Below are positions 9,134 to 28,024 of a DNA stretch of 31,737 nt, piece after piece; positions within the stretch are counted from its first letter, which is position 1, and the number at the start of each line of letters is the position of its first letter. The stretch lies in contig CAYJQA010000002.1 of the NCBI GenBank assembly GCA_964372065.1, positions 1,453 through 33,189 of the forward strand, in the 5' to 3' direction. A model generated the notes under the pieces. That model worked only from the letters and a program-made list of their open reading frames with translations. It did no database searches and was not told the origin of the DNA. The stretch comes from an uncultured Litorilinea sp. (GTDB taxonomy: Bacteria; Chloroflexota; Anaerolineae; Caldilineales; Caldilineaceae). Position numbers and translations under genes: made by a program.

Positions 9134-10564
9134 CTACCCCAACTTGTAGGCGGCCTTGGCGAGCCCATACGCAGCGGCGTGGATCATCTCGCGCGCGTCC
9201 TCTTCGTCGATGACATGGCGCACGACCAGGTTCGCCAACCAGTTGGCATCCACGCGCCGCGCCAGGTCATGGCGCGCCGGAATGGACGGGTAGGCGCGCG
9301 TGTCGTCGTTGAAGCCAACCGTATTGTAGAGGCCCGCGGTCTCGCTCACCGCCTCGCGGAAACGCATCATGCCGTTCCACGAGTCATAGAACCACCAGGG
9401 CGGCCCCAGACGCATGGCGGGATAGTGACCGGCCAGGGGGGCCAACTCACGCGCGAAGGTCGTCTCGTCCAGCGTAAAGACGATGAAGGTGAAGCCCGGC
9501 GCGGAGCCGTAGCGATTGAGCAGCGGGCGCAGGTTGCGCGTGTAGTCGGTGGCGATGGGGATGTCCGCGCCCATGTCCGCCCCGAAACGCTGGAAGAGCG
9601 CCGTGTTGTGGGCGCGCAGCGAACCAGGATGTAGCTGCATGACCAGGCCGTCGTCCACGCTCATGCGCGCCATTTCCATGAGCATGTGGCCGGTGAAGCG
9701 GGTCGTGTCATCCGCGCCGGCCTGTCCGCGCAGGGCGCGGCTGAAGATGGCCTCGGCGTCGACGTCGCCCAGCGCCTCGGTGAAGGGCGTCAACGCGGCG
9801 TGGTCCGTGGCCGTCGCGCCCATCGCCTTGAAGCGGGCGCGCTGCGCTTCCAAGGCCTGGATATAGCTCCGATAGCTCACCACGTCGATCCCCGTCACCG
9901 CGCTCAGGCGGTCGATCTCCTGCCGCCAGGTCGGCGTGTCCAGGTTGACCACGGCATCCGGGCGGAAGGTGGGCCGGATGCGCCCCGGCCAGCCGGAATC
10001 CAGAATCGCCTGATGGTGCTCCAGCCGCGAAGTGGCCGGGTCCGTGGTGCAGAGAACCTCGATATTGAAACGCTCGTAGAGCGCACGCGGGCGAAATTCG
10101 GGCGCCGCCAGACACTCGGCAATGTGGTCGTAGATGCGCTGCGCCGAGGCCGGCGTGAGCTTCTCCGTCACGCCGAAGACGCCGGCCAACTCATCATTGA
10201 GCCACATGCCGGTGGGCGTGCCGCGGAACAAGTAGTAGTGGTCGGCGAAAAGCTGCCAGATGCGCCGGTGGTCCGTCTCGGCGGCGGAACCCCCTTCGCG
10301 CCCGGCAAAGCCGAGCTGTTCCAGCGCGATTCCTTGCGAATACAACATGCGAAAGATGTAGTGGTCGGGGATGATCAGCAGGTCGGCGGGTGAGCCGAAA
10401 TCATAGTCGGGGTCCGCAAAGACGCGCGGGTCCACATGCCCGTGCGGGCAGAGCAGCGGCAGCCCGGCGACGGTCTCATAGAGCGCCAGCGCGATGCGCT
10501 TTTGGGCCGGGTCGGCGTCGAAATAGCGATCGACGGGTCGCGGGAGCGTTGGCTCGGTTTTCAT
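9134..10564 (-). CDS. uxaC: Uronate (glucuronate/galacturonate) isomerase
   Basis: CPHGHVDP, DHYIFRML, LCTTD, FRPD, VMQLHPG, LGPPWWF.DS, GFNDDTRA..SIPARHD.ARR. ATG 10564 has SD GGAGGA; the track's upstream extension is spurious. Confidence 0.93.
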   Translation of the reverse strand: MKTEPTLPRPVDRYFDADPAQKRIALALYETVAGLPLLCPHGHVDPRVFADPDYDFGSPADLLIIPDHYIFRMLYSQGIALEQLGFAGREGGSAAETDHRRIWQLFADHYYLFRGTPTGMWLNDELAGVFGVTEKLTPASAQRIYDHIAECLAAPEFRPRALYERFNIEVLCTTDPATSRLEHHQAILDSGWPGRIRPTFRPDAVVNLDTPTWRQEIDRLSAVTGIDVVSYRSYIQALEAQRARFKAMGATATDHAALTPFTEALGDVDAEAIFSRALRGQAGADDTTRFTGHMLMEMARMSVDDGLVMQLHPGSLRAHNTALFQRFGADMGADIPIATDYTRNLRPLLNRYGSAPGFTFIVFTLDETTFARELAPLAGHYPAMRLGPPWWFYDSWNGMMRFREAVSETAGLYNTVGFNDDTRAYPSIPARHDLARRVDANWLANLVVRHVIDEEDAREMIHAAAYGLAKAAYKLG

Positions 10565-10656
10565 CGTGTGTCCTCCGGGTGGAGTGCAGGCCGGGTGAGG
10601 TGCGGGACTGAGACAGTGGCAGCGCCGGATGGCCCGCCTGCCCGTGCGCTCCCTTG

Positions 10657-10686
10657 AGTATACCCGCGCGCCCGCCGTGGCCTCAA
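10657..10686 (-). promoter_or_regulatory. Possible promoter for uxaC
   Basis: Minus strand TTGAGG (10686-10681), 18 nt, TATACT (10662-10657). Confidence 0.4.
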
Positions 10687-10714
10687 ACGGCAGGACGGCT
10701 GCATCCGGCGCTGC

Positions 10715-10743
10715 TTGTCGCGTGTGGCCTGCTCGGCTATGAT
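10715..10743 (+). promoter_or_regulatory. Promoter placing the predicted TSS on the ATG of the di-heme protein gene (leaderless)
   Basis: TTGTCG (10715-10720), 17 nt, TATGAT (10738-10743), 6 nt, ATG at 10750. No SD. Confidence 0.62.
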
Positions 10744-10749
10744 GGGGCC

Positions 10750-13700: not shown

Positions 13701-14640
13701 GGGCGAAGGGCTGCGCAACACCATTTCGCTCGTGAGCAAGGGTCGCCCCCGCAACGGTTTGCTGCACTGGAGCGCCAACTTCGACGAGATCCAGGACTTT
13801 GAACACGACATGCGAAACAACTTCGGCGGGAGCGGCTTCTTGACCCAGGCGGAGTTCGATGCGGGCAGCCGCAACCAACCGCTGGGCGACGCCAAGGCCG
13901 GTCTCAGCCCGGAGTTGGACGCGCTCGCCGCGTTCGTCGCCACCCTGCGCGAACTGCCGCCCAGTCCCTATCGCGCCGCCGACGGCAGCCTGACGCCGGA
14001 TGCTCAGGCCGGACGAGCGATCTTCCTGGATGCCGGCTGCGCCACCTGCCACGGCGGGCCGGAGTTCACCGATAGCCCGTCGGGACAGTTGCATCAGGTC
14101 GGCACCATGACGGTGGCGTCCGGTCATCGGCTGGGCGCTGAGTTGGCCGGTTTCGATACGCCGTCGCTGCGCGGGCTGTGGCTGACCGCGCCCTATTTGC
14201 ATGACGGGTCGGCGGCCACGTTGGCCGATGTGTTGACCACGCTCAACCCGTTCGGGCAGCATGGCGGGCTGGGGCATCTGTGGGAGGCTGACCCCCACGC
14301 GGTGGATCGCCTGGTCGCCTACTTGCTCCAGATTGACGACCGCGAGCCGGGCTTCGACGTGGCCGCGCCCGCCATCGAGTTGGCCTCGCCGCCCGCCAAT
14401 GCGCGCCTCGCGGCGGGCCGTCCCGTGGTGTTGGCCGTCAACACAGCGCCCTTCTTGGGGCCGGTCGCGCGCGTCGACTTCTATGCGGGCGATGTCCTGA
14501 TCGGCTCCGACAGTACCGTCATGTACGCCTATACCTGGACCGACGCCGCGCCGAGCCGTTACGCGCTCACCGCCCGCCTCGTCTATGCGGGGGGCAGCGT
14601 GTCCATCTCCGCCCCGATCGCCGTCGAGATCGTCCCGTAG
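10750..14640 (+). CDS. Secreted multidomain protein: LVIVD-like propeller, Big_5 Ig, PKD, YVTN/YncE propeller, di-heme cytochrome c (bCcP/MauG superfamily), C-terminal Ig
   Basis: Signal peptide; PKD motif YSWRFGDG; YVTN-like repeats; CAGCH (13642-13656) and CATCH (14038-14052); RNTISL and DTPSLRGLWLTAPYLHDGS motifs. Confidence 0.85.
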   Translation: MLRHRLGSSIRPTMRLVALLIVALWLAPAPDRAQGQTNLIANRTYGEDQIFKVMGRLNAQNGAPQEHSSVVVHQGYVVEVYSQENDRPQAGIAVFDFSDPSAPRLISRTEEGADKLSEQHAIGFAHQDGRDYAALLAIDGVEIWDWTDMAAPKQVSQLALPGVEFGYARGAWWLAWQAPYLYVAGASNGIYIVNTSDPARPFLADRGDGPNPIPTSQTGGFRMGPIFAVGNLLVASANDGRGYATLDIGDPADPILLDTLAGRDAPPSYSSMLNGSVLYAVGTDDDLYGLDVRDPTAIRRLDAVPVYGRGGYLTIQDNFAHVGASDHYVKVDVADPSDFRVVGSATSGEPDHDEDFAVAVGNLVVLGDDHNHGSFIFPHQAEPDVTGPTVNMVSPADGSRNQSRASRIGVTFTDRVDLRTVHAGTFIVRPVGGEALDGTYSSQTGIVNFTPAAPLARDTTYEIVIPAGGIRDVVGNPVATTFTARFATGSSVGANFWCRVDPPAPVEVEQLATLSVALLDGPDGVSYSWRFGDGAAATPLSPERRATYAWAAPGHYTVTVTATDGRRSTGCSALFTVYRRATNGVAQASGTITLDRSGTQVWSVNPDNDTVTVVDAVQLKKMAEVPVGHRPRTLAVAPDDTVWVANQTDDTVSVLDGGTTARLTTVSLPSGSEPYGVAVSPSRGVVYVTLQSTGELAELDLYARVVRRRLDVGPTPRAIAISADGNRIYVTRYISPADQGEVVEIDAAEWRVARRIPLAFDSGPDTESSGRGVPNGLAAAAVSPDGARLWIAGRKHNTARGITRDGQRLTFDSTVRSILAQVDPASGDEEPAARYDFNNRDGPVALQFTPLGDYLFVVLEGSNAIDVIDAYSGQLVTAIEGAGHAPQGLVFTADGSKLFVDSWLSRDVIVYDVADLVAGRSRQAQRLTEIAAVGHDPTPADVLLGKQVFYLARDSRMSRDGYITCAGCHLDGRADGRVWDRTAEGEGLRNTISLVSKGRPRNGLLHWSANFDEIQDFEHDMRNNFGGSGFLTQAEFDAGSRNQPLGDAKAGLSPELDALAAFVATLRELPPSPYRAADGSLTPDAQAGRAIFLDAGCATCHGGPEFTDSPSGQLHQVGTMTVASGHRLGAELAGFDTPSLRGLWLTAPYLHDGSAATLADVLTTLNPFGQHGGLGHLWEADPHAVDRLVAYLLQIDDREPGFDVAAPAIELASPPANARLAAGRPVVLAVNTAPFLGPVARVDFYAGDVLIGSDSTVMYAYTWTDAAPSRYALTARLVYAGGSVSISAPIAVEIVP

Positions 14641-16285: not shown

Positions 16286-18112
16286 CTATCCTTCCGATGA
16301 TTCGACGAATTGGCGAGTGTAAAGCGTGGCATATAGACCGCCCAGGGTGAGCAACTCGGCGTGGCTGCCGCGTTCCACAAGCTGCCCGGCCTGCACCACG
16401 CAGATGACATCGGCGTTACGCACCGTGCTCAGGCGGTGGGCGATCACCACCGACGTGCGCCCCTGCAAGAGTCGCTCCAGCGCATCTTGGATCAATGCTT
16501 CCGTCACTGTGTCCACGCTGGAGGTCGCTTCGTCCAGCATGAGGATGCGCGGGTCCGCCATGACCGCGCGCGCGATGCAGATGAGCTGGCGCTGGCCGAT
16601 GGAGAGGTTGGCGCCGCCCTCCATGACCGGCGTAGCGTAGCCCTCGGGCAGTTGGGTGATGAAATCGTGGGCGTTGGCCATGCGCGCCGCTGCCTCCACA
16701 CGCGCTTGGTCCGCGTCCACGACGCCAAAGCGGATGTTATCGGCCACCGCGCCCGGAAAGAGAAACGGGTCTTGGGGGACCAGTCCCATCTGGCGGTGGA
16801 GCGATTGCTGCGTCACGGCGCGCACGTCGATGCGGTCGATCAGCACCGCGCCGCCGGTGACATCATAGAAGCGCCCAATGAGGTTGGCGATGGAGGTCTT
16901 GCCCGCGCCGGTCGGCCCCACCAGCGCCACAGTCTGGCCCGGCTCGATGACCAGGTTGATGTCGCGCAGCACCGGCTCGCCCGGCTTGTAGGCGAATTCC
17001 ACGTCGCGCAGTTCGATGCGGCCCGCAATGGGCGGCATGGCGCGGCCGTCCGCGGGGTCTGCCACTGTGACCGGCGTGTCCAGCAGGTCCAGCACCTTCT
17101 CGCCGCCCGCCATCGCCGCCTGCAGCGTCGTATAGAGTTGGCTCAGCTCTTGGATGGGGCCAAAGAACCGGCTCACATAGGCCAGAAACGCGACCACGAC
17201 GCCCAACGTCAGTTCGCCCTGCGCGACGGACATGCCGCCGACCCACAGCACAACCGCGGTGGCAACCATGCTCAAGAACTCGACCGAGGGCAGAAAGATA
17301 AAGGACAGCGTCATGGCCGCGATGTTGGCGTCGCGGTTGGCCTGGTTGACTTCGTTGAAGCGTTCCTGGCTGGCGTCTTCCTGGGCGAAGGCTTGGATGA
17401 CGCGGATCCCGGCGATGTCCTCGGCCAGATTGCCGACCACCGCCGCGATGCGCGTGCGCGTCTGGCGGTAGGCTTCCTGGGCGTAGCGCGCAAAGATCAG
17501 CGTCGCCACGACCATCAGCGGGACGACCAAGAAGGCCATGAGCGCCAGCTTGGGGCTCATAGAGACCATGACCGCCACGATGCCCACCAGCAGCAGCGTG
17601 TCGCCGAGGATCGTCACCACGCCCTGCGAGAGCAGTTCGTTGATGATCCCCACATCGTTGATGACGCGCGACACGGTGACGCCCACGATGTGGGTGTCGT
17701 GATAGCTCAACGGCAGCCGCTGCAAGTGCTCAAAAAGCTGCGACCGCAGGGTCGCCAGGACTTTCTGGCCGACCCAGGAGAGCAGATAGCTCAACCCCGC
17801 CGACGAGGCGTATGTCCCCACATAGGCGGCTGCGATCAGCAGCGCGGTCCGCGTTAGCCCGGCCAGGTCCATTTGCGTGATGTTGGCGTCGATGGCGACC
17901 TTGACCAGATAGGGAATCCACAGCGTCAGCCCGGTCGATACGACCATGAGGGCCAGCGCCGCCGCCATCATCTTGCCATGCGGGCGCAGATAGGCCAGGA
18001 GCCGCCGCATGACCCGCTGATCGTAGACGCGTCCCTCTTCCGGCGCGGTGCCGAAGCTCTCGATCAGCCCGCGCGGCCCTCCCCCCATGCCACCACCAAG
18101 CGCCAGTCCCAT
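16286..18112 (-). CDS. ABC exporter, fused TMD-NBD half transporter
   Basis: Six-TM domain plus Walker A GPTGAGKT, signature LSIGQRQ, Walker B ILMLDE, IAHRLST. Confidence 0.93.
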   Translation of the reverse strand: MGLALGGGMGGGPRGLIESFGTAPEEGRVYDQRVMRRLLAYLRPHGKMMAAALALMVVSTGLTLWIPYLVKVAIDANITQMDLAGLTRTALLIAAAYVGTYASSAGLSYLLSWVGQKVLATLRSQLFEHLQRLPLSYHDTHIVGVTVSRVINDVGIINELLSQGVVTILGDTLLLVGIVAVMVSMSPKLALMAFLVVPLMVVATLIFARYAQEAYRQTRTRIAAVVGNLAEDIAGIRVIQAFAQEDASQERFNEVNQANRDANIAAMTLSFIFLPSVEFLSMVATAVVLWVGGMSVAQGELTLGVVVAFLAYVSRFFGPIQELSQLYTTLQAAMAGGEKVLDLLDTPVTVADPADGRAMPPIAGRIELRDVEFAYKPGEPVLRDINLVIEPGQTVALVGPTGAGKTSIANLIGRFYDVTGGAVLIDRIDVRAVTQQSLHRQMGLVPQDPFLFPGAVADNIRFGVVDADQARVEAAARMANAHDFITQLPEGYATPVMEGGANLSIGQRQLICIARAVMADPRILMLDEATSSVDTVTEALIQDALERLLQGRTSVVIAHRLSTVRNADVICVVQAGQLVERGSHAELLTLGGLYATLYTRQFVESSEG

Positions 18113-18116
18113 GCGT

Positions 18117-18782
18117 CTATCGCTTTCGTACCAGGGTCATCCCGTCGCCGATCGGCACCAGCGTCAGGTCGACGCGCTCATCATCGCGCAGCTGTGTGTT
18201 AAGCTGGCGAATCGCCTTGATGCCGGCATCTTGGCGGGCGGGGTTAATCACACCGCCGCTCAAGAAGACATTGTCAATCACGATCATGCCGCCGGGCCGC
18301 AGCAGCGTCAAACAATGCTCGTAGTATGCTGGGTAGTTCGGCTTGTCGGCGTCGATGAAGGCGAAATCGTAGGAGTCGCGTTGGTCTCCGTCCGCGACCA
18401 GCGCGGACAGGGTATCCAGGGCTGGGGCCAAGCGCAAGTCAATCTTGTGCGCTACACCCGCCGTTTGCCAATTGCGTTGCGCGATGGCCGCCCATTGGGG
18501 ATTGACGTCGCAGGCAATCAGGCGGCCGTCATCGGGCATCGCCAGGGCGACGGCCAGCGCGCTGTAGCCGGTGAACACGCCGACCTCCAGCGCCCGTGTT
18601 GCGCCCAACGTCTTGACCAGAAAGGCCATGAATTGCGCCTGTTCGGGCGCAATCTGGAGCTCAAATTCCGGCATCTTCTCCGCTTCCGCGCGCACGGCGG
18701 CCAGCTTCGGCGGCTCGCGCAGGGAAACATCCAACATGTAAGCGTTCAGCGGGTCTGTCATGCTGATCGTCCGGCTCGCCAT
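18117..18782 (-). CDS. SAM-dependent O-methyltransferase (caffeoyl-CoA OMT-like, Methyltransf_3)
   Basis: LQIAPEQAQF, ALEVGVFTGYS, DFAFIDADKPNY..YYE, LRPGG.IVIDN, VPIGDGMTL. Confidence 0.92.
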   Translation of the reverse strand: MASRTISMTDPLNAYMLDVSLREPPKLAAVRAEAEKMPEFELQIAPEQAQFMAFLVKTLGATRALEVGVFTGYSALAVALAMPDDGRLIACDVNPQWAAIAQRNWQTAGVAHKIDLRLAPALDTLSALVADGDQRDSYDFAFIDADKPNYPAYYEHCLTLLRPGGMIVIDNVFLSGGVINPARQDAGIKAIRQLNTQLRDDERVDLTLVPIGDGMTLVRKR

Positions 18783-18821: not shown

Positions 18822-19997
18822 TCACAGGGCAGGCGTGCGGTACAGGACTTGTCCGCTCACCTTGATCTCCACGTCCAACAGGTACTTCGCCAAGCCCGCG
18901 GTGTTGACCGTGAGGCCCAGACCGGGGCGCTCCGGCGCATGAATCTGCCCATCGGCGTCGCGCTCGATGTGGTCCAGCGTGATGTCCAGCGCCAGTTGCT
19001 TCGGCTCGACCGGATATTCGCTGATGACGTCTGCGCGGATGCCTGCAAAGGGCTGGATGGATGCGCTCAGCGCCAGATGCGACGTGAAGGTATGGTTGAC
19101 GTAGGTCACGCCGTGGGCCTGGGCATAGTCAGCGGCGTCTTTGGCGATGGTGATGCCGCCGATACGTCCGGCGTCCACCTGGATATAGCCGATGCCCGCA
19201 TAGTCGATCATGTGCTGGGCCATGTGGAAGTTATGGCTGCCCTCACCGCCCGCCAGCTTAACCGGCCCCGCCAGCGCGGCCAACCGGGCGTACTCCTTGA
19301 GCGCGCCCGACACAAACGGTTCTTCCAGCCAGGTCGCGCGGGCCGTCAGCAGGGACGGAATCCGCAACGCGGCCGCGGCGAAGTCGGTCTTCCACACGGT
19401 CCCGGCGTCGATCAACAGGATACCCTCGTCGCCCAGCCCTTCGCGTGCGGCCATGAAGTGGTCGGCGTCATCCTGTACCGACCCCAGACCGATCGGCCCC
19501 CAGCCAAACTTGGCGGCGACATAGCCCATGGCCCGCGCCGACTTTCCCTTCGCCAGCGTCTCCTGCGGCGTGTCGCCAAAGAGCATCGACGCATAGGGCG
19601 TCTTGGAGTAGGCGGTGGGATAGCCCAGCAGGGCATACACCGGCGCGTTGAGCCGCTTGCCCAGCAGGTCCCACAGCGCCATGTCGATGCCCGACAGCAC
19701 ATGGTCGGTTTGCAGCAGGTCCATGCTCTCGGCGCGCACCAGATCGCCGATGCGCCGGATGTCGGCAATGTCGTCGAGCCGCTTGCCCAAGACGGACGCC
19801 TGCACCGGCTTGCACGCGCTGTGCGACATGGGGCAGACCAGCCCGGCGATCGAGGGCAGCGGAGCGGCCTCACACTCGCCCCACCCCGTATGACCGCCCG
19901 CCGTCACGCGCACAAGCGTCGCGTCTTGGCTGCCGTCGCCCACGTTGAGGATTTCGGGCATGGACAAATAGAAAAAGTCAACGCTATCAATTTGCAT
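18822..19997 (-). CDS. Enolase-superfamily enzyme, mandelate racemase subgroup (probable acid-sugar dehydratase)
   Basis: GWGE, SGIDMALWDLLGK...PVYALLG, metal ligands IDAG/LEEP/GGEG, QVD and NH general-acid pair. Confidence 0.88.
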   Translation of the reverse strand: MQIDSVDFFYLSMPEILNVGDGSQDATLVRVTAGGHTGWGECEAAPLPSIAGLVCPMSHSACKPVQASVLGKRLDDIADIRRIGDLVRAESMDLLQTDHVLSGIDMALWDLLGKRLNAPVYALLGYPTAYSKTPYASMLFGDTPQETLAKGKSARAMGYVAAKFGWGPIGLGSVQDDADHFMAAREGLGDEGILLIDAGTVWKTDFAAAALRIPSLLTARATWLEEPFVSGALKEYARLAALAGPVKLAGGEGSHNFHMAQHMIDYAGIGYIQVDAGRIGGITIAKDAADYAQAHGVTYVNHTFTSHLALSASIQPFAGIRADVISEYPVEPKQLALDITLDHIERDADGQIHAPERPGLGLTVNTAGLAKYLLDVEIKVSGQVLYRTPAL

Positions 19998-20090
19998 GGT
20001 CGGTGATGTCCTGGGAAAATCGGCATCTGGTAGATGGCGGCGGATGGTTGCAGCAGCCGGCGGCGCACAGCGTTGGGGGAGCGTTGAGCA

Positions 20091-20387
20091 ATGAACAGCA
20101 CATTTTGGGGCCTGCCGGTAGAAGTCTGGGTGGGTCTATGTTTGGCAGTCGCGGCCTTCTACACCATGCTGTGGCCGCGGCCCCTGCGGGGCGAGCAGCG
20201 ATCCCTGTGGACGGCTTCCGTCCTGCGCTGGGGCCATGCGCTGGTCTGGGTACTGCTGGCGGCGGCGTTCCTCGCCTACCGCTTCTTCGGGCTGCTGCCC
20301 GCCCAGCTTCTCGGCCTGAGCGGGCTTGCGCTCTACATCGTCTTCATGGCGACCCTACTGCGCCGCCGGGCCAAGCCACGCGCCTAG
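20091..20387 (+). CDS. Small hypothetical membrane protein (3 TM)
   Basis: Three hydrophobic segments, basic C-terminus, SD GGGGAG; fills the gap between minus-strand genes. Confidence 0.7.
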   Translation: MNSTFWGLPVEVWVGLCLAVAAFYTMLWPRPLRGEQRSLWTASVLRWGHALVWVLLAAAFLAYRFFGLLPAQLLGLSGLALYIVFMATLLRRRAKPRA

Positions 20388-21415
20388 ACGGGCGACAGAT
20401 TGCCCAGGCGCACGGCCTTGGCCTGCGCCGTCAGCGCCAGTTCCGAGGCGCGGAAACAGTGCGCCTGGCTCATGGCCGTCTCGGTCCGGTGCAGGATGTC
20501 ATAGGACAACTGGCGGCCATAGGGCAGTTCCACTTGCGAGCAGTCAATGTACCGCGTGCTCTTGCTGTCCACCAAGAAGAGATGGTCGCTGCCCGGTCGT
20601 CCGGCGATGTCGATGTTTTTGCGGACCTCGATGTAGCCGTCCGTGCCGATGACCGTCAAGCGCGTGTCGCCCCACGTAGCCAGCCCCTCCGGCGTGAACC
20701 AGTCCACGCGCACATAGCCCGTGCAGGTGGGCGCGCGGAACAGAATTTCGCCAAAGTCCTCAAACTCCGGATACTGGGGATGGTGGCGGTTAGCCACGGT
20801 CGCGGCGACAACCTCGACGTCGGTCGCCTGGGTGAAGCTCAAGAACTGGTCGCACTGGTGCGCGGCGATGTCGGTGAGGATGCCGCCAAACTTGGCCCGC
20901 TCGAAGAACCACGGGGCGCGCGTAGGGAAGCGCCGCAGGTGCGGCCCCAGCCCCACCGTGTTGACCACCTGCCCAATCGCGCCGTCCAGCACCAGTTGTA
21001 GCGCCTGGGTCGTGGCGCGGTTCTCCATCCGCTCGCCAAAGTCGATCGAGTAGATGCGCCCGGTCTCGGCCTGGACGCGGCGTACTTCGGCCAGTTGCTC
21101 AAAGGTCGTGACGCCCGGCTTGTCGCTCATGAAGTCTTTGCCGTGGCGCATGGCCTGTACGGCGATCCCGGCGCGCTCGCTCGGCACCCCGGCGGTGAGG
21201 ATGAGCTGGATCGACGGGTCTTCCAGGATTTCTGCGGCGCTGGAGGCGGCCTTGCCCTGCGGATAGGCCTTGGCAAAGTCGGCCTGCTGCTTGGGGTCGG
21301 CGGTGATGTAGCTGACCAGCGTCGCACCCGCGTTAAGCATCAAGCTTGTCTGCGAGTTGATGTGCGGGTGGTCCATCCCGATCACGCCAAAGCGGATCGA
21401 CGGTTGTGTACTCAT
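20384..21415 (-). CDS. Gfo/Idh/MocA family oxidoreductase
   Basis: RFGVIGMDHPH, GKDFMSDKPG, GGILTDIAAHQ, VRVDWFTP. ATGA overlap with the upstream SDR; SD AGGGAG. Confidence 0.9.
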   Translation of the reverse strand: MSTQPSIRFGVIGMDHPHINSQTSLMLNAGATLVSYITADPKQQADFAKAYPQGKAASSAAEILEDPSIQLILTAGVPSERAGIAVQAMRHGKDFMSDKPGVTTFEQLAEVRRVQAETGRIYSIDFGERMENRATTQALQLVLDGAIGQVVNTVGLGPHLRRFPTRAPWFFERAKFGGILTDIAAHQCDQFLSFTQATDVEVVAATVANRHHPQYPEFEDFGEILFRAPTCTGYVRVDWFTPEGLATWGDTRLTVIGTDGYIEVRKNIDIAGRPGSDHLFLVDSKSTRYIDCSQVELPYGRQLSYDILHRTETAMSQAHCFRASELALTAQAKAVRLGNLSPV

Positions 21416-22200
21416 GGCGTATCTCCCTTGGATCGGTTGTACTCGTGATACCAACGTTCGCCGTCATGCATCCCAGTCGCAAACAGCCGGAAGGCATCGT
21501 CCACCGGGGCGTAACCGACTACGTCGCGGGTGTTGGTGATGTCCATCCGCTTGAAGCGATTGTCGGAAACGGCCTGCACAATGGCAAATTGCACGCCTTC
21601 CGTCTCGATACACTGCACGAAAAGGTGGGTCAGATCGCGCTTGGAGACAAACGCGCTCAACGTGCGCGCATCCGGGTGCTCGTGGACCCGATTGCCCTCA
21701 AATGCGCCGATGCGTACCGCCACGGTGGAGAGGCCCTCGGCATAGGCAAAGTAGTGGCCCAGCGCCTCGCCAAACGCCTTGCCCACGGCGTAGAGGTTCA
21801 TGGGCTTGACGGGGTCATATGCCTTGGGCTGCACGTCCAGCGGATAGCCCTCGATGACCTGGACGCTGCTGGCAAAGATAACCCGGCGGCAACCCTGATC
21901 CTTCGCCGCACGAAAGATGTTGAACACAGCCTTGATGTTGTTGTCCAGCAGCGATCCATAGAAATCGGCGCGCGTCGACGGGTCCGCCGCCAGGTGCAGC
22001 ACCGTGTCCATCCCTTCGCACACGGCATAGCAGGCCGCCAGGTCGGACAGATCCGCCTGGATCGCCTCATAGGGGCCGGGGTCGCCGATCTTGTCCAGGT
22101 CCCGGTCCACCAGGCGCAGATCGTAGCGGTCGCCGACCAGGCTGCGAAAGGCCGTGCCCACCCGGCCCCCTGCGCCGGTCAAAAGAACTCGACGTGCCAT
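21412..22200 (-). CDS. NAD-dependent SDR, uronate dehydrogenase (Udh)-like
   Basis: VLLTGAGGRVG, VLHLAA, VIFASS, YxxxK (YAVGK), VAVRIG, VSDN, GYAPVD. Its 262-aa length and layout fit the Udh-like group better than full-length epimerases. Confidence 0.8.
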   Translation of the reverse strand: MARRVLLTGAGGRVGTAFRSLVGDRYDLRLVDRDLDKIGDPGPYEAIQADLSDLAACYAVCEGMDTVLHLAADPSTRADFYGSLLDNNIKAVFNIFRAAKDQGCRRVIFASSVQVIEGYPLDVQPKAYDPVKPMNLYAVGKAFGEALGHYFAYAEGLSTVAVRIGAFEGNRVHEHPDARTLSAFVSKRDLTHLFVQCIETEGVQFAIVQAVSDNRFKRMDITNTRDVVGYAPVDDAFRLFATGMHDGERWYHEYNRSKGDTP

Positions 22201-22234
22201 GCGCTTCCCGTTCTAGCGCCCATGTTTGGGCGGC

Positions 22235-23206
22235 TTAGGTGTATACCGGCAGGTCCGGCGCGATGAGCCGGTTGGCGAGCGTGACGCCCGGCGGCACACG
22301 CGCGCCCGTGAGGGCCATCACATCGGCTAACTGCGCGTGCTCGCCCACACAGACGCCGCGCTCCAGGTAGACCCGCGGGCCGATGGTCGCGTGTGGGCCG
22401 ATACATACCCCGTCTTCGACTACCACGGGCGGGCAGAAGGTGACGGACGCATGGGCCTCCGTGGTCGCCACGACCCATTGGTCGGGCGTCTGCGCCAGAA
22501 AATCCAGGTTGAGCGCCAGCAGGTCGGCGGCGTCCGTCACTTGGCGGCGCTCCGCAGTGATGACTCCCAGCACCGCGCCGGTCTCCTCGATCAGCATTTG
22601 GATCGCGTCTTGCAACTCGTACTCACCGCGTGGCGACGGCTGCACGCGCGGCAGCACATCCAGCACGGCGCGGTCAAAGACATAGAGGGGCAGGCTCGAA
22701 ATGTTGGAGGGAGCATCGGCGGGGCGCGGCTTTTCCACAATGCGGCGCACAAAGGGCGGCTCCCACACGACGACGCCCGTGCGGGGGGCCAGGGCAATGT
22801 CGATGGGCATGAGGCTGAGGACCGCAGCCGCAGCGTGCCGCGCCTGGAGGGCGATCAGGTCGCCCACGTGCTCGGGCGCGACCAGGTTGTCGCACGCCGA
22901 CAGCACAAACGGGCCGGTCAGCAGCGGCGCGGCCTGCCTCAGCGCATGGGCCATCCCCAGCCGCTCCGTCTGCGCCACATAGCGCACCCGCACGCCCCAC
23001 GCGTTGCCGTCGCCAAAATAGCCGCGGATCGCCGCGTCGTCCGGGCTGACGACCATCACCAGGTCATCCACGCCGTTAACTGTGAGCGTATCCACCACGC
23101 GGCCCACCAAGGGCTTGCCCGCGACCGGCGACATAGCCTTGGTGCGCGTTTGCGTCAAGGGCCGGAGCCGCGTACCTTTGCCCGCGGCCAGGACTACACC
23201 CTGCAC
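22235..23206 (-). CDS. Sugar-1-phosphate nucleotidyltransferase (RmlA/long-form type with hexapeptide-like C-terminus)
   Basis: LAAGKGTRLRPLT, Q.ERLG.AHA, CDN, VEKP, PSPRGEYELQDAIQ. Confidence 0.9.
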   Translation of the reverse strand: MQGVVLAAGKGTRLRPLTQTRTKAMSPVAGKPLVGRVVDTLTVNGVDDLVMVVSPDDAAIRGYFGDGNAWGVRVRYVAQTERLGMAHALRQAAPLLTGPFVLSACDNLVAPEHVGDLIALQARHAAAAVLSLMPIDIALAPRTGVVVWEPPFVRRIVEKPRPADAPSNISSLPLYVFDRAVLDVLPRVQPSPRGEYELQDAIQMLIEETGAVLGVITAERRQVTDAADLLALNLDFLAQTPDQWVVATTEAHASVTFCPPVVVEDGVCIGPHATIGPRVYLERGVCVGEHAQLADVMALTGARVPPGVTLANRLIAPDLPVYT

Positions 23207-23212
23207 CCGGAC

Positions 23213-24502
23213 CTAGCCTTCCACCGGCGCGGGCAGCAGCGCGGCACGGCCATCGGGCCGGCAGAGGTGAATGCTGTACTTGTCCGCGATCTCCGGGTGC
23301 GCCGTGGGATAGCGGCGATGCACCGCCTCGGCGATTGCGCCGAACGCCGCCGGGTCGATCAGCGCCAGGCAGTTGCCGCGGAAGCCTGCGCCGCTAAAGC
23401 GCGTGCCCAGCACGCCGGGCGTCTGCGCCAGGATCTCGTACAGCGTGACCAACTGCGGACTGCCGCATTCGTAGCACTTGATGGAGCTTTCGCCCGACGC
23501 CGTGACCAAGCGCCCCATCTCGGCCAAGTCACCCCGCTGCCAGGCTGCGACGCCCTGTTCGACGCGCGCCATTTCGCCAAAGAAGTGCTTGGCTCGTTTG
23601 GCCAACGGTGCGTCGAGCGTATGTCCGTAATCGGCAAAGAGGCCGGGGTCGACATGGCGCAGACGCACCTCCGCCGGGAGCGGCCGCCCACCGCGGTCCA
23701 ACAGGGTCGCCGCCGCGTCGCGGCATTGAGCGACCCGGCTGTTGTAGTCGGTCCCCGTCAGGGCATGGGTGACGCCGGAATAAACGACCAACACGCCAAA
23801 GCGGTCGCGCAGGTCGGCGGGGGCCAGCGCCGTGGGTACATTGTCCACTTCGACGGAAGCGCAGTCGATGCGCGTCAAATGGTCGTGGCGGCTGTACAGA
23901 ATGACCGACTGGTCCAGGATGCCGTTGTTCAAGCCAATGTAGCGGTTTTCCGTGTACCGGCAATGGTCCACGTTCTCGCGCTCGTCCACGCTCAGGTCGT
24001 TGGCCGCCTCCAGCGCCAGCAGATAGGCCACCGTCACCGCCGCCGACGAGCTTAGTCCGCCGATGGGCATACTTCCGCCCACCACCCCGATCAGCCCACG
24101 GCGCAGCGCGTGACGCTGCTGCAGGGCCAGCACGGCCCCGCGCACATAGTTGGCCCACTCGCCTTTCTGGAAGGGCGGCACCGCGTCCAGCACAAACGCC
24201 GCGGGCTGGGCGAAGTCCAGGCTTTCCAGTTCCACGCGGCCATCGTCCGTGGGCACAAAGGCGAGCAGGATCGACCGGTCAATGGTCATGCCGGTGACAA
24301 TGCCCAGTTGGTGGTCGATGTGCGCGCCCAACGGCGAAATCCGCAGCGGCGCACGGACCACACGGATGCGCGCCGGGTCAACGCCGGGACGCTCCAGCAA
24401 ACGTCTACGCAATGGCGCGACCTGTTCGTCCTCGGTGTGCGGTTGCACAATGGGCGGCGCGCCGGCAAGTGAGGAGAGGGTAGAGCCGGACGTAAGTGCC
24501 AT
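23213..24502 (-). CDS. GHMP sugar kinase, plant galacturonokinase (GalAK)-like
   Basis: RISPLGAHIDHQ, GLSSSAAV.VAYLLALE.AN, NGILDQS, YN.RV, SGESS..YECG, RFSGAGFRG. 429 aa from ATG 24502, SD GAGGGG. Confidence 0.82.
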   Translation of the reverse strand: MALTSGSTLSSLAGAPPIVQPHTEDEQVAPLRRRLLERPGVDPARIRVVRAPLRISPLGAHIDHQLGIVTGMTIDRSILLAFVPTDDGRVELESLDFAQPAAFVLDAVPPFQKGEWANYVRGAVLALQQRHALRRGLIGVVGGSMPIGGLSSSAAVTVAYLLALEAANDLSVDERENVDHCRYTENRYIGLNNGILDQSVILYSRHDHLTRIDCASVEVDNVPTALAPADLRDRFGVLVVYSGVTHALTGTDYNSRVAQCRDAAATLLDRGGRPLPAEVRLRHVDPGLFADYGHTLDAPLAKRAKHFFGEMARVEQGVAAWQRGDLAEMGRLVTASGESSIKCYECGSPQLVTLYEILAQTPGVLGTRFSGAGFRGNCLALIDPAAFGAIAEAVHRRYPTAHPEIADKYSIHLCRPDGRAALLPAPVEG

Positions 24503-24599: not shown

Positions 24600-24741
24600 G
24601 ACACCATTCTACTCGATGCCAAGGTGACACAAAAATCGACGCGACAATTCTATAGCTGCGTGTCGAGTGCGTCTGACAACTGGTGACCGCGCGGCGTCTC
24701 ATGTACCGCCCGGTCGCCCCATCACAGCGGAGATACTCCTC

Positions 24742-25689
24742 ATGCGTTACGTACCCCTCGGCCAATCCGGCCTCCAGGTCTCGCAAGTCGCCTACGGCTG
24801 TATGAGCCTCACGCCCGACCGCCGCGATGCGGGCATCCAGGCCGTCGCCCGCGCCTGGGAGTTGGGCATCAACTTCTACGATACGGCGGACGTCTACCGT
24901 CGGGGCGTGTCGGAATTTATCCTCGGCGACGCGCTGCGGCGCGCGGCGATTCCGCGCGACCAAGTTGTCATCGCGTCCAAGTGCGGTATCATCTTCAAGG
25001 GCAGCCACCCCGACTATGCGTACAAAGCCTACGACCTATCAGGCGACTATCTGAAGCGATCCTGCGAAGGCTCGCTCAAGCGGCTGGGCATGGAGTATAT
25101 TGACCTCTATCAGCCGCACCGCATCGACTATCTGACCCATCCGCAGGAGACGGCCCGCGCCCTGGAAGACCTCATCCGCGAGGGCAAAGTGCGCCATGCC
25201 GGTATCAGCAACCACACCGCCGACGAGATTCGCGCGCTGTCGGCCTACATCCGGCTGGAGTCACTACAGACGCAGTTCAGTCTCCTCCACCTGGAGCCGC
25301 TGGAAACGGGGCTGGCCCCGGTCTGTTTGGAAAAGCAGATGGCGATGTTATGTTGGAGTCCGCTGCACGTGGCGGTCCTGTCCGGCGTGGACAAACCGGC
25401 CCACGATGACTGGCAGCGCCAGCGTGAAGTAGGCGCGGTGGCGCAACTCGCCAAGTTCGCCGCGGCCTATGGCGTCACGCTCTCGCAACTGGCGCTGGCG
25501 TGGCTCATGCAATTGCCCGGCAGCGTGATTCCGCTGGTGGGCACGGCCAATGCGGCCCACATCGCCGAAGCGGCGGCAGCCGTCGACGTGACCCTGACCC
25601 GCGACGACTGGTACGAAATGATGGTCATCGGCCGCGGCCGCCCCATGCCCTGGGGCCAGCGACCGTACATGTATATCAAGGATCGATAG
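24742..25689 (+). CDS. Aldo/keto reductase
   Basis: VSQVAYGCM, INFYDTADVY, IASKCG, SLKRLGMEYIDLYQPHR, GKVRHAGISN, QLALAWL, PLVGT. SD GGAGA. Confidence 0.92.
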   Translation: MRYVPLGQSGLQVSQVAYGCMSLTPDRRDAGIQAVARAWELGINFYDTADVYRRGVSEFILGDALRRAAIPRDQVVIASKCGIIFKGSHPDYAYKAYDLSGDYLKRSCEGSLKRLGMEYIDLYQPHRIDYLTHPQETARALEDLIREGKVRHAGISNHTADEIRALSAYIRLESLQTQFSLLHLEPLETGLAPVCLEKQMAMLCWSPLHVAVLSGVDKPAHDDWQRQREVGAVAQLAKFAAAYGVTLSQLALAWLMQLPGSVIPLVGTANAAHIAEAAAAVDVTLTRDDWYEMMVIGRGRPMPWGQRPYMYIKDR

Positions 25690-26403: not shown

Positions 26404-27969
26404 TCAGCGCGCGACGTACCGCTGCACGGTCAATCCGTCCCAGGACCACGTTTGCGCCAGGCGCAGGCGGCGCGTTAGCGCGTCGGGGATGAGGCCGTCC
26501 GGGTCGGTGTACCACCAGTGGGAATAGACGAGCCAGAGTTGGCCGCGCCCTGCGATGTGGCTGTCCAGTCGCGGCAGATCGGCTGCGGTCATGGACGGCT
26601 CCAACTCACCCCGGTCAAAGAGATCGACGGGCAGGCCACGCCGTGCCGCCGCCAGGTCGTCCGGCGGCAAGTAGTAGTCAAAGGGCAGTTGCACCCAAGA
26701 CGCGTTGAAGAGGATCAGGTCGCCCGGCAGCGCGGCCGCCCGTACGACGGCCGCGGCCTTGTCCCACGCTTCCTTCTCGTAGGCCGTCAGATAGGACCAC
26801 ACGCCCACACCGCTGAGGACCAGCAGCGCGCCGCCCGCCATCCAACCCGGCAGCCGCCCGCGCCCCGCCCGCGCGCCGGGCGGCTGCGCCACGACGCCAC
26901 GGGCCATGAGTAACGCATACGGCAGGATGGTCCAGATCAGCGTGCGGTCATAGAAGATGGGCCGCCGCAGACTCACCGCCAGTTCCAGCAGCGCCGGCAG
27001 CAGCCAGAGCGACAGCAGCAGCCAGGCCAGCCCCGGCTGGTCTGAACGCGCCCGCACCCCGCGCCAGGCGAGCCACAGCCCCAGCACAGGCCACACGCCA
27101 CGCAGCGGGAACGTCACCGGCAGTTGAGCGACGGTCAAATTGCCCAGCGTCTCCCAGACAAACGCAAGCGTCGGCGCGGGCACCCAGAAGTGCGCGTCCA
27201 CTACCCGCGCTTGGGCCAGGAAGGGACCTGCCCACGGCAGCCAGAGCGCCAGGGCCAGCCCTTGCGCCGCCAGCCAGCGCCCCAACCAGCCCCGATCCGC
27301 CTGGGCGGGCCACGGCAGGGTCATGCGCCCCAGCCGCCATGCCCCCCACGCGCCCAGCACGCCCACATTGAGCGCCACGGGCGCCAGGATCGTCGCGGTG
27401 TTGTGCAGCCACATGGCCGCGGCCTGCGCCGTCGCCAGCCCCAGCACCGCGCGGATAGCTTGTCGCCGCGACGGTTGGCGCGGCGTGAGCAGATTTGCCG
27501 TGAAGACCAGCATGGCGGCCACGGCCAGCGTCAGCAGGGCGTACATCCGCGCTTCTTGGCCGTAGCGCACCAGAAACGGCGACAGCGTGACCAGGAGCGT
27601 CGCCGCCAGGGCCACGCTCCGACCTGTCAGCTTGACCGCGGCGGCATAGAAAATCGGGATCGCGAGCGTTCCGGCCAGCGCGGAAAGACCTCGCGCCGCG
27701 GCCGCCGTCGCGCCCGTCCCGGCCAGCCACCCATGCAGGAGCAAATAGTAGAGGGGTGGATGGTGGTCAATCTGGACCACCCAGTGCAGCAGATCGGCGG
27801 GTGTCTGACCGGCCATCCACAGACTGAAGGCTTCGTCCAGCCACAGCGTCTTGGCTTCCAGCGCCCACCCGCGCAGCCCACCCCCGACGACTGTCAGCAG
27901 CGCAACCGCGGCCCATGCCATACGATTTGGGGATTGGGCCGTGTCCGCGCTATGGTGAGGCGCGATCAT
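26404..27969 (-). CDS. GT-C fold membrane glycosyltransferase (GT39/PMT_2-like)
   Basis: LWLDEAFS (DE motif after TM1), DHHPPLYYLLLH, RGLSALAG, SPFLVRYGQEARMY; multiple TM segments. Start could be 27978, 27969 or 27921. Confidence 0.85.
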   Translation of the reverse strand: MIAPHHSADTAQSPNRMAWAAVALLTVVGGGLRGWALEAKTLWLDEAFSLWMAGQTPADLLHWVVQIDHHPPLYYLLLHGWLAGTGATAAAARGLSALAGTLAIPIFYAAAVKLTGRSVALAATLLVTLSPFLVRYGQEARMYALLTLAVAAMLVFTANLLTPRQPSRRQAIRAVLGLATAQAAAMWLHNTATILAPVALNVGVLGAWGAWRLGRMTLPWPAQADRGWLGRWLAAQGLALALWLPWAGPFLAQARVVDAHFWVPAPTLAFVWETLGNLTVAQLPVTFPLRGVWPVLGLWLAWRGVRARSDQPGLAWLLLSLWLLPALLELAVSLRRPIFYDRTLIWTILPYALLMARGVVAQPPGARAGRGRLPGWMAGGALLVLSGVGVWSYLTAYEKEAWDKAAAVVRAAALPGDLILFNASWVQLPFDYYLPPDDLAAARRGLPVDLFDRGELEPSMTAADLPRLDSHIAGRGQLWLVYSHWWYTDPDGLIPDALTRRLRLAQTWSWDGLTVQRYVAR

Positions 27970-28024
27970 GCTAGACACCTTCGTCGTCGAGCGTGCAGTT
28001 TTTCACGTCAAAAGGAGCGCAACT

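Follow-up and report, generated by a model that had tools for sequence, protein, structure and literature searches.

A conserved kinase-nucleotidyltransferase gene pair in Chloroflexota as a candidate route for the activation of free galacturonate

Plants activate free D-galacturonate (GalA) with galacturonokinase (GalAK, EC 2.7.1.44), reportedly described from Arabidopsis (At3g10700) by Yang et al. in 2009. The product, GalA-1-phosphate (GalA-1-P), is then handed to USP, an unrelated and promiscuous uridine diphosphate (UDP)-sugar pyrophosphorylase. In bacteria, to our knowledge, UDP-GalA is taken to arise solely from UDP-glucose via Ugd and a 4-epimerase. Here we analyse a stretch of 31,737 nucleotides from an uncultured Litorilinea sp. 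of the Chloroflexota (GenBank assembly GCA_964372065.1, contig CAYJQA010000002.1), referred to as the window, in which the gene for a GalAK-like kinase adjoins the gene for a sugar-1-phosphate nucleotidyltransferase. Genes for a short-chain dehydrogenase/reductase (SDR) and for an oxidoreductase of the Gfo/Idh/MocA family follow. Our preferred reading, which we hold with moderate confidence and judge somewhat better than even, is that the pair would carry out a two-step activation of free GalA inside a galacturonate-utilisation island, with the SDR at a branch point.

A eukaryotic precedent exists for the coupling of a uronate kinase with a nucleotidyltransferase. The zebrafish protein DrGKUP joins a GHMP-family uronate 1-kinase to a bacterial-type (GT-A, RmlA-like) nucleotidyltransferase and converts free uronate to UDP-uronate (PMC3938481). 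It differs from the pair in the window in being a fusion protein, in its glucuronokinase-family kinase, in its substrate D-glucuronate (GlcA) and in its short transferase domain without a beta-helix (PMC3938481). We searched the literature for galacturonokinases and GalA-1-P nucleotidyltransferases of bacteria and retrieved plant and zebrafish work only, and a full-text search for the motif LGAHIDHQ returned no papers. An earlier note on this DNA did not know the route to be described in bacteria; this agrees with the literature searched, with the qualification that DrGKUP provides the principle in a eukaryote. Compared with plant GalAK, the kinase in the window has the same GHMP/galactokinase-like fold, motifs, clade and predicted reaction (GalA + ATP to GalA-1-P), but it is bacterial, its gene adjoins that of its presumed partner, and it lies among catabolic genes.

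The unit and its motifs are as follows (window positions; aa, amino acids; NTP, nucleoside triphosphate; ORF, open reading frame):

24502-23213, minus strand: kinase gene, 429 aa, ATG start with GAGGGG before it; predicted D-galacturonate 1-kinase, a GHMP sugar-1-kinase of the GalAK clade
23206-22235, minus strand: transferase gene, 323 aa, GTG start; long-form sugar-1-phosphate nucleotidyltransferase with a C-terminal left-handed beta-helix, predicted NTP:GalA-1-P nucleotidyltransferase
23126..23143, minus strand: TKAMSP motif of the transferase, residues 22-27; counterpart SKQLLP/PKxLxP
22886..22900, minus strand: SACDN motif of the transferase, residues 103-107; RmlA counterpart LGDN
22200-21412, minus strand: SDR gene, 262 aa, ATG start with GGGAAG before it; Udh/Azf-type extended SDR, predicted to oxidise an anionic sugar (free uronate) at C1
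21415-20384, minus strand: Gfo/Idh/MocA oxidoreductase gene, 343 aa; uncharacterised subfamily
20091-20387, plus strand: hydrophobic ORF of 98 aa between the Gfo and MR/MLE genes, probably a membrane protein; no Pfam match

All proteins are direct table-11 translations of the unaltered sequence. The ORFs, translations and junction sequences agree with the layout first described for this DNA, namely four genes in the same orientation on the minus strand, with two gaps (6 and 34 bp) and one 4-bp overlap. The TAG of the kinase gene is followed by a 6-nt gap (gtccgg), 34 nt separate the transferase and SDR genes, the SDR stop and the Gfo start overlap by 4 nt as ATGA, and a purine-rich ribosome-binding site lies ahead of each of the four starts. 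Since the Gfo gene is cut off from the next gene on its strand (MR/MLE) by the opposite-strand ORF at 20091-20387, the compact unit consists of exactly four genes; scans for consensus promoters and terminators gave nothing usable for its boundaries. In Pfam the kinase matches GalKase_gal_bdg (PF10509), GHMP_kinases_N (PF00288) and GHMP_kinases_C (PF08544), all above the cut-offs, the transferase matches NTP_transferase (PF00483, E 6.7e-32) and Hexapep, the SDR has an Epimerase-type extended-SDR fold, and the Gfo protein matches PF01408 and PF22725 (an N-terminal Rossmann and a C-terminal alpha/beta domain). The proposed four-gene operon is thus real as a tight unit but composite, with the kinase-transferase pair alone widely conserved and the SDR and Gfo genes found, alongside catabolic genes, in a few close relatives.

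The kinase and the plant galacturonokinase clade

The kinase scores below the cut-off of the canonical galactokinase (GalK) family TIGR00131 (188.7 bits against 226.65), and its best match among solved structures is human GALK1 (138 bits). Motif I reads PLGAHIDHQ (residues 57-65) and aligns with GEHTDYN of GALK1, placing A60 where GalK has Glu, and motif III reads SGAGFRG against GGGFGG. At the galactose-contact positions of GALK1 the alignment retains the Arg, the His, the Asp, the catalytic Asp and the Tyr. The pocket differs from GALK1 at three places, where the O6-contacting Glu is Ala, a nearby Tyr is His and a Gly is Arg. These changes, toward less negative and more positive charge, would fit a carboxylate at C6.

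To place the kinase among its relatives we ran an exhaustive HMMER search over 1.84 billion cluster representatives (50 % identity) and examined the best 150. The motif R-x-x-P-x-G-A-H-x-D-H-Q is present in 100 of these 150, and canonical GalKs, bearing RVNLIGEHTDYN, sit at the bottom of the list. Motif III varies inside the clade marked by GAH (GFRG, GFGG, GFKG and GFNG). Among the representatives are the galacturonokinase of Camellia sinensis (P0146), streptophyte algal sequences (P0150 and P0235, with Spirogloea and Mesotaenium among those named) and a sequence from Micromonas (P0220). Over 414 aa the kinase in the window shares 41 % identity with the Camellia enzyme, and GAHIDHQ and SGAGFRG are common to both; in the alignment the kinase Tyr at TDYN pairs with Camellia GYNH, and SGAGFRG with SGAGFRG. 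SGAGFRG, A60, Y253 and A372 are invariant in 17 Chloroflexota kinase sequences. Yang et al. 2009 reportedly probed A41, Y250 and A368 of the Arabidopsis enzyme, which we take to be the equivalents of A60, Y253 and A372.

We then built a maximum likelihood tree of 105 sequences by a quick search, with support from the SH-like approximate likelihood ratio test (SH-aLRT) and without bootstraps. A branch with SH-aLRT support of 100 splits the GAH clade from canonical GalK, and the kinase in the window falls in one subclade (support 97) with the streptophyte GalAKs of Camellia, Spirogloea and Mesotaenium, Micromonas being in the sister subclade. As judged from these sequence comparisons, the kinase belongs to the plant GalAK clade and not to the ordinary galactokinases. 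The identification as GalAK-like in the earlier note is therefore borne out by motif, identity and tree. An ordinary galactokinase was considered and ruled out by the TIGR00131 score below cut-off, the Glu to Ala change and the tree position. If the assignment is true, the 'plant' GalAK family would be largely bacterial, as the motif count among the best 150 representatives indicates.

The source genome (G000), a metagenome-assembled genome (MAG) that is 84.6 % complete, encodes a separate canonical GalK split over contig ends (C273:3-572 and C88:11874-12494) with GEHTDYN and GAGFGG. Because the genome holds its own canonical GalK, the kinase in the window is an extra, specialised paralogue. 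Contig C467 ends in a third GalK-like fragment. Looking up the kinase in the ESM Atlas returned generic GHMP and galactokinase clusters only, and the automatic annotation of IMG labels some homologues 'galactokinase/galacturonokinase'.

The transferase and the conservation of the pair

The catalytic hallmarks of the transferase (GKGTRL, K23, D106 and E158-K159-P160) are present, align to RmlA and are invariant in the family. Q79 is conserved as well and is presumably the Gln that reads the pyrimidine base in RmlA, GalU and GlmU. The sugar-pocket motifs SACDN and TKAMSP, reported from the first inspection of the sequence, are confirmed, and HMMER aligns both with the RmlA segments LGDN and SKQLLP. 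Among 16 Chloroflexota sequences of the family, A104, C105, D106, K23, A24 and P27 are invariant, and S103 and M25 are kept in at least 90 %.

The best NCBIfam match is Arch_glmU (184.6 bits against a cut-off of 292.1), with AglF and rmlA_long also below their cut-offs. An AlphaFold2 (AF2) model with a mean predicted local distance difference test score (pLDDT) of 85.8 has as its closest folds ST0452 and VTC1/GMPPB, both with template modelling scores in the range 0.71-0.73, as well as GlmU. The enzyme was first described as an RmlA-type transferase; this stands at the level of PF00483, but the protein is better described as a long ST0452/GlmU/GMPP-like form with a left-handed beta-helix. With ST0452 of S. 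tokodaii, archaeal GlmU-like enzymes, RmlA-long and GMPPB/VTC1 it shares the two-domain architecture and the catalytic motifs; it differs from these long forms in scoring below every cut-off, in its truncated beta-helix, in [ST]KAM.P and SACDN, and in its tie to a GalAK-like kinase. A plant-type USP (UDPGP family) was rejected as an identity for the transferase, which has no UDPGP match, carries PF00483 with hexapeptide repeats and folds like ST0452/GlmU/GMPP. The canonical RmlA Cps23FL is inactive on GalA-1-P (PMC9056299), so that an enzyme dedicated to this substrate, with its pocket remodelled, is plausible.

The earlier note had staked its proposal on the pair recurring in other genomes, and the survey shows that it does. 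We retrieved 80 genome loci with a kinase profile, 60 of which are non-redundant loci of the Chloroflexota type with enough downstream sequence. The transferase gene lies at most 350 bp downstream of the kinase gene in 49 of these 60 loci and at most 4 kb downstream in 52. Across the GTDB family (151 genomes in 26 genera, which are related to one another so that counts are not independent events) the kinase was found in 34 genomes and the transferase in 35, with the same 12 of the 26 genera holding both. Both genes are present in 33 genomes, the kinase alone in 1 (at a contig end), the transferase alone in 2 and neither in 115. A few genomes (G526, G527) keep both genes far apart. In a phylum-wide sample the kinase was found at E <= 1e-60 in 2 of 401 Chloroflexota genomes, so the gene is patchy in this phylum. 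The kinase matches in four related family genomes (G508, G456, G527 and G510) contain an in-frame TAG or TAA, which could reflect a pseudogene, an assembly error or an open-frame fusion.

Outside the Chloroflexota, the kinase gene of KSB1 and Latescibacterota is followed by a gene for a short transferase (~256 aa) with PKPLLP (L069:8098-8871, L075:5063-5833, L082:3423-4193). This protein aligns with the transferase in the window over the first 43 residues only and belongs to a different subfamily, while one Armatimonadota locus carries the long form. That the kinase clade is paired with at least two transferase subfamilies supports a functional coupling of kinase and transferase.

In eight Planctomycetota loci the kinase gene is followed by a gene for a conserved protein of ~370 aa with the Rossmann motif AGAWGYIG and no Pfam family. 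Its AF2 model (pLDDT 78.6) has a Gfo/Idh/MocA fold and matches GFOR and Gal80p; no sequence similarity was found between it and the Gfo protein in the window. Yeast Gal80p binds a GalK paralogue. The Planctomycetota genes are the following, with further copies in L072, L081 and L083:

L068:8326-9516: Gfo-fold protein
L071:8015-9139: Gfo-fold protein
L076:6858-7973: Gfo-fold protein
L078:8205-9302: Gfo-fold protein
L079:8320-9444: Gfo-fold protein

Two Anaerolineales loci (L064:2520-6961 and L065) have genes for a phosphoglucomutase, an ATP-sulfurylase/APS-kinase fusion and a GalE-like epimerase, then the kinase, with no adjoining transferase. This context looks anabolic and may be linked to a sulfated glycan.

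Galacturonate context, proposed route and alternatives

We clustered the predicted proteins neighbouring the pair and annotated them with Pfam, which resolved four recurrent architectures. In architecture A, the type of the window, genes for a (PMT_2 GT-C glycosyltransferase), a GDSL protein and an aldo-keto reductase (AKR) are divergent from a run of kinase, transferase, Udh-like SDR, Gfo, DHDPS, MR/MLE, O-methyltransferase (OMT) and ABC genes; some of these loci carry an SMP-30 lactonase and an altronate/galactarate dehydratase upstream. Architecture B (7 loci) has an adh_short SDR and UxaE (tagaturonate epimerase) divergent from the pair, and on the other side a xylose-isomerase-like TIM barrel, a creatininase-family gene and a Zn-ADH. 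Architecture C (4-5 loci) has UxaC divergent from the kinase with or without the transferase (L022, L039, L048 and L057) or inside the cluster (L033). In architecture D (3 loci) the pair is followed by a GD_AH altronate/galactarate dehydratase; it includes the cultivated Litorilinea aerophila (L001). The altronate/galactarate dehydratase is also found nearby in further loci. The divergent arrangement of AKR and kinase is found in L007-L009 and L011, where the AKR is 73-75 % identical, and in L004 and the Armatimonadota locus L084, where it is 29-31 % identical.

Tagaturonate, altronate and galactarate derive from galacturonate and not from glucuronate or neutral sugars. Because these neighbours act on GalA-derived intermediates, the context favours GalA over GlcA, arabinose and fucose as the substrate. 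The genomic context thus points specifically to galacturonate, and the galacturonate-specific catabolic neighbours of the Chloroflexota version add evidence on the substrate.

The top PDB matches of the SDR are the uronate dehydrogenases 3RFT (A. tumefaciens) and 3AY3 (C. salexigens), both full length at E 1e-21 (residues 3-236), in agreement with its first description as Udh-like. Its best NCBIfam match is the haloarchaeal Azf glucose-6-phosphate dehydrogenase (151 bits against a cut-off of 400). The SDR shares with Udh and Azf the short (~265 aa) extended-SDR format, TGxxGxxG and YxxxK, and differs in falling below the Azf cut-off and in having V, Q and A at the positions of Udh N112, H113 and S165; the equivalent of R174 is retained. 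These four Udh residues are reportedly substrate contacts in 3RFT. Udh and Azf oxidise the free anomeric C1 of sugars with an anionic group at C6. As C1 is blocked in GalA-1-P and in nucleoside diphosphate (NDP)-GalA, the SDR more probably competes with the kinase for free uronate than acts after the transferase. Diversion of free uronate to aldarate is accordingly the more likely of the two roles first suggested for the SDR, the other being action on the NDP-sugar.

The Gfo protein matches no characterised equivalog in NCBIfam, where it has a weak match to an archaeal UDP-GlcNAc 3-dehydrogenase. In the PDB it comes closest to two structural-genomics targets, 2P2S and 3U3X, the latter from S. 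meliloti, without assigned function and with an E value of 5e-114 over almost the whole length. A 53 % identical homologue on S. meliloti pSymB lies in an ABC-transporter cluster for sugar uptake that has neither kinase nor transferase; its neighbours there are Gfo, DHDPS, mandelate-racemase and sugar-phosphate isomerase/epimerase genes. This context speaks, though not decisively, for a Gfo substrate that is a free sugar or acid. The SDR was found only in close relatives, where it occurs with MR/MLE and DHDPS (L006, L009, L011 and L041; L010 and L028 are too short to tell). In a variant in which Gfo and OMT follow the pair the SDR is missing and the Gfo gene comes directly after the transferase gene (L003, L033 and L047, and L013 by tblastn), and both SDR and Gfo are absent from most pair-bearing loci. 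By this distribution the two genes are lineage-specific additions.

Comparative genomics supports the first reading of this locus; the mechanism, including the substrate, the nucleotide, which way the flux runs and what the SDR and Gfo enzymes do, is our inference from it. The kinase would phosphorylate the anomeric hydroxyl of D-GalA to give alpha-D-GalA-1-phosphate. The transferase, with its remodelled sugar pocket ([ST]KAM.P and SACDN), would then combine GalA-1-P with an NTP to form NDP-GalA for glycan synthesis; retention of the GxGTRL loop and of the Gln that reads the base makes UTP or dTTP the most likely NTP. The SDR, predicted to be co-transcribed, would oxidise free uronate at C1 and make the operon a branch point between activation and oxidation, and the Gfo/Idh/MocA enzyme is predicted to be a sugar or sugar-acid dehydrogenase. 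Within this reading, our confidence on the sequence evidence is higher for a GalA kinase and lower for NDP-GalA as a precursor in glycan synthesis. If the proposal is true, conversion of free galacturonate to an NDP-sugar would connect the breakdown of pectin in environmental bacteria with their synthesis of envelope glycans. A further gain would be a dedicated GalA-1-P nucleotidyltransferase, an activity absent from ordinary RmlA (PMC9056299) and useful for chemoenzymatic synthesis of NDP-uronates.

Several points weigh against the proposal. At 41 % identity to a plant GalAK and on a different sub-branch, the kinase may possibly have shifted its specificity (to GlcA, L-arabinose or D-fucose). 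In NCBIfam the transferase matches no characterised equivalog among RmlA, RmlA-long, GalU, GlmU, AglF, MurU, HddC and ManC, all being far below cut-off, and its sugar and nucleotide specificity is not readable from sequence. The lack of equivalents of Udh N112, H113 and S165 in the SDR would count in the same direction, as does the Planctomycetota arrangement, in which no transferase adjoins the kinase. The source genome encodes a Ugd-type NDP-sugar dehydrogenase, which would make salvage of GalA redundant and not a necessity. No glycosyltransferase was identified as the consumer of NDP-GalA, and the sequencing runs containing the stretch are of sediment DNA only, with no RNA run.

We considered three other explanations. 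It is conceivable that the pair activates another galacto-configured sugar in which the C6 hydroxyl is lacking or altered (L-arabinose, D-fucose or D-glucuronate), or galactose itself in a pyrophosphorylase-type bypass of the Leloir pathway, and that the nearby uronate genes are merely part of a general plant-polysaccharide utilisation island. A small residue in place of the motif I Glu could also suit sugars without O6, and the variation of motif III in the GAH clade suggests more than one specificity; the closest named relatives, however, are plant galacturonokinases with the same SGAGFRG and GAHIDHQ, and the three pocket changes all go toward positive charge. The island does hold an alpha-L-fucosidase, an MFS_2 glycoside transporter and an FGGY kinase, and UxaC acts on GlcA as well as GalA, yet the recurrent UxaE and altronate/galactarate dehydratase handle intermediates from GalA and not from GlcA, arabinose or fucose, and a canonical GalK is present elsewhere in the genome. 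On balance we find this explanation unlikely, although it is the one we take most seriously after our own. Slightly less credible is a single pathway of all four genes on an activated sugar, in which Gfo, SDR or both convert NDP-GalA or GalA-1-P, either to a keto-, epimerised or decarboxylated form of the NDP-sugar destined for an envelope glycan or as part of a catabolism at the nucleotide level. The tight spacing and the ATGA coupling agree with it, as do the position of Gfo directly after the transferase in the four loci named above, the membership of NDP-sugar 3-dehydrogenases in the Gfo/Idh/MocA family together with the weak archaeal UDP-GlcNAc 3-dehydrogenase match, the eight Planctomycetota loci where an unrelated protein of predicted Gfo fold comes after the kinase, and the PMT_2 GT-C, OMT and ABC exporter conserved in the window-type cluster. 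It is opposed by the need of Udh/Azf-type SDRs for a free anomeric C1, which sugar-1-phosphates and NDP-sugars do not offer, by the S. meliloti Gfo homologue in a free-sugar uptake and catabolic cluster without kinase or transferase, and by the many pair-bearing loci, most of them, without SDR and Gfo genes.

More doubtful again is the specific idea that GalA-1-P or NDP-GalA is the true substrate of the Gfo-fold dehydrogenase, in a new conversion of uronates at the nucleotide or phosphate level that would lead to an envelope sugar derived from an NDP-keto-uronate or to a phosphorylative, nucleotide-dependent catabolic route. Two hints favour it, the independent pairing of GalAK-like kinases with unrelated Gfo-fold proteins in Chloroflexota and Planctomycetota, and the conservation of GT-C, methyltransferase and ABC exporter in the window-type cluster. 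Finally, the enzymes may act separately, with no common pathway and with kinase and transferase serving unrelated housekeeping needs for sugar nucleotides. Neighbours beyond the pair do vary widely among loci, and several genomes hold the two genes far apart (G526 and G527), but adjacency in 49 of the 60 loci, near-identical presence and absence over the 151 family genomes and the fact that other phyla independently combine the kinase with a different transferase subfamily make this improbable.

The island around the unit

The nearest relatives of the stretch are MAGs of Caldilineaceae and Anaerolineae (Chloroflexota). The window is a sugar-acid utilisation island with a GH29 alpha-L-fucosidase, UxaC, an FGGY kinase, an MR/MLE dehydratase, an AKR, an RpiB/LacAB isomerase, an MFS_2 transporter of the glycoside-pentoside-hexuronide type and several further Gfo/Idh/MocA genes. 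The features discussed here are:

9134..10600, minus strand: UxaC-type uronate isomerase, Pfam UxaC E 6.7e-70; putative start within ORF 9134-10786
16286-18112, minus strand: fused ABC exporter
18117-18782, minus strand: Methyltransf_3 OMT
18822..19997, minus strand: MR/MLE (enolase-superfamily) acid-sugar dehydratase or cycloisomerase, Pfam MR_MLE_N/C; weak matches to galactonate, arabinonate and galactarate dehydratases
24667..25689, plus strand: AKR, Pfam Aldo_ket_red, divergent from the kinase
26404-27978, minus strand: PMT_2-type GT-C glycosyltransferase

The oxidative galacturonate pathway draws on the families of Udh, galactarolactone cycloisomerase and KdgD. The SDR, MR/MLE and DHDPS neighbours are of the same enzyme families, and together with the AKR they also recall the fungal reductive galacturonate pathway, which we regard as a lead only. 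A KdgD-like DHDPS gene is absent from the 386-bp gap at 19998-20383, and neither an orthologue of it nor UxaE was found in the source genome at its 84.6 % completeness. In L006, L009, L011 and L041 a DHDPS-family gene (KdgD- or aldolase-like) sits between Gfo and MR/MLE.

In 7-11 loci of the window type the pair is accompanied by the PMT_2 GT-C, the Methyltransf_3 OMT and the fused ABC exporter, and their conservation could reflect a role of the pair's product in an envelope glycan. The window also encodes a secreted multi-domain cytochrome-c/propeller/Ig protein of ~1300 aa (10750-14640, plus strand). Its gene and the UxaC-like gene at 9134-10600 are syntenic with the kinase cluster in other Chloroflexota (L003/L020 and L033).

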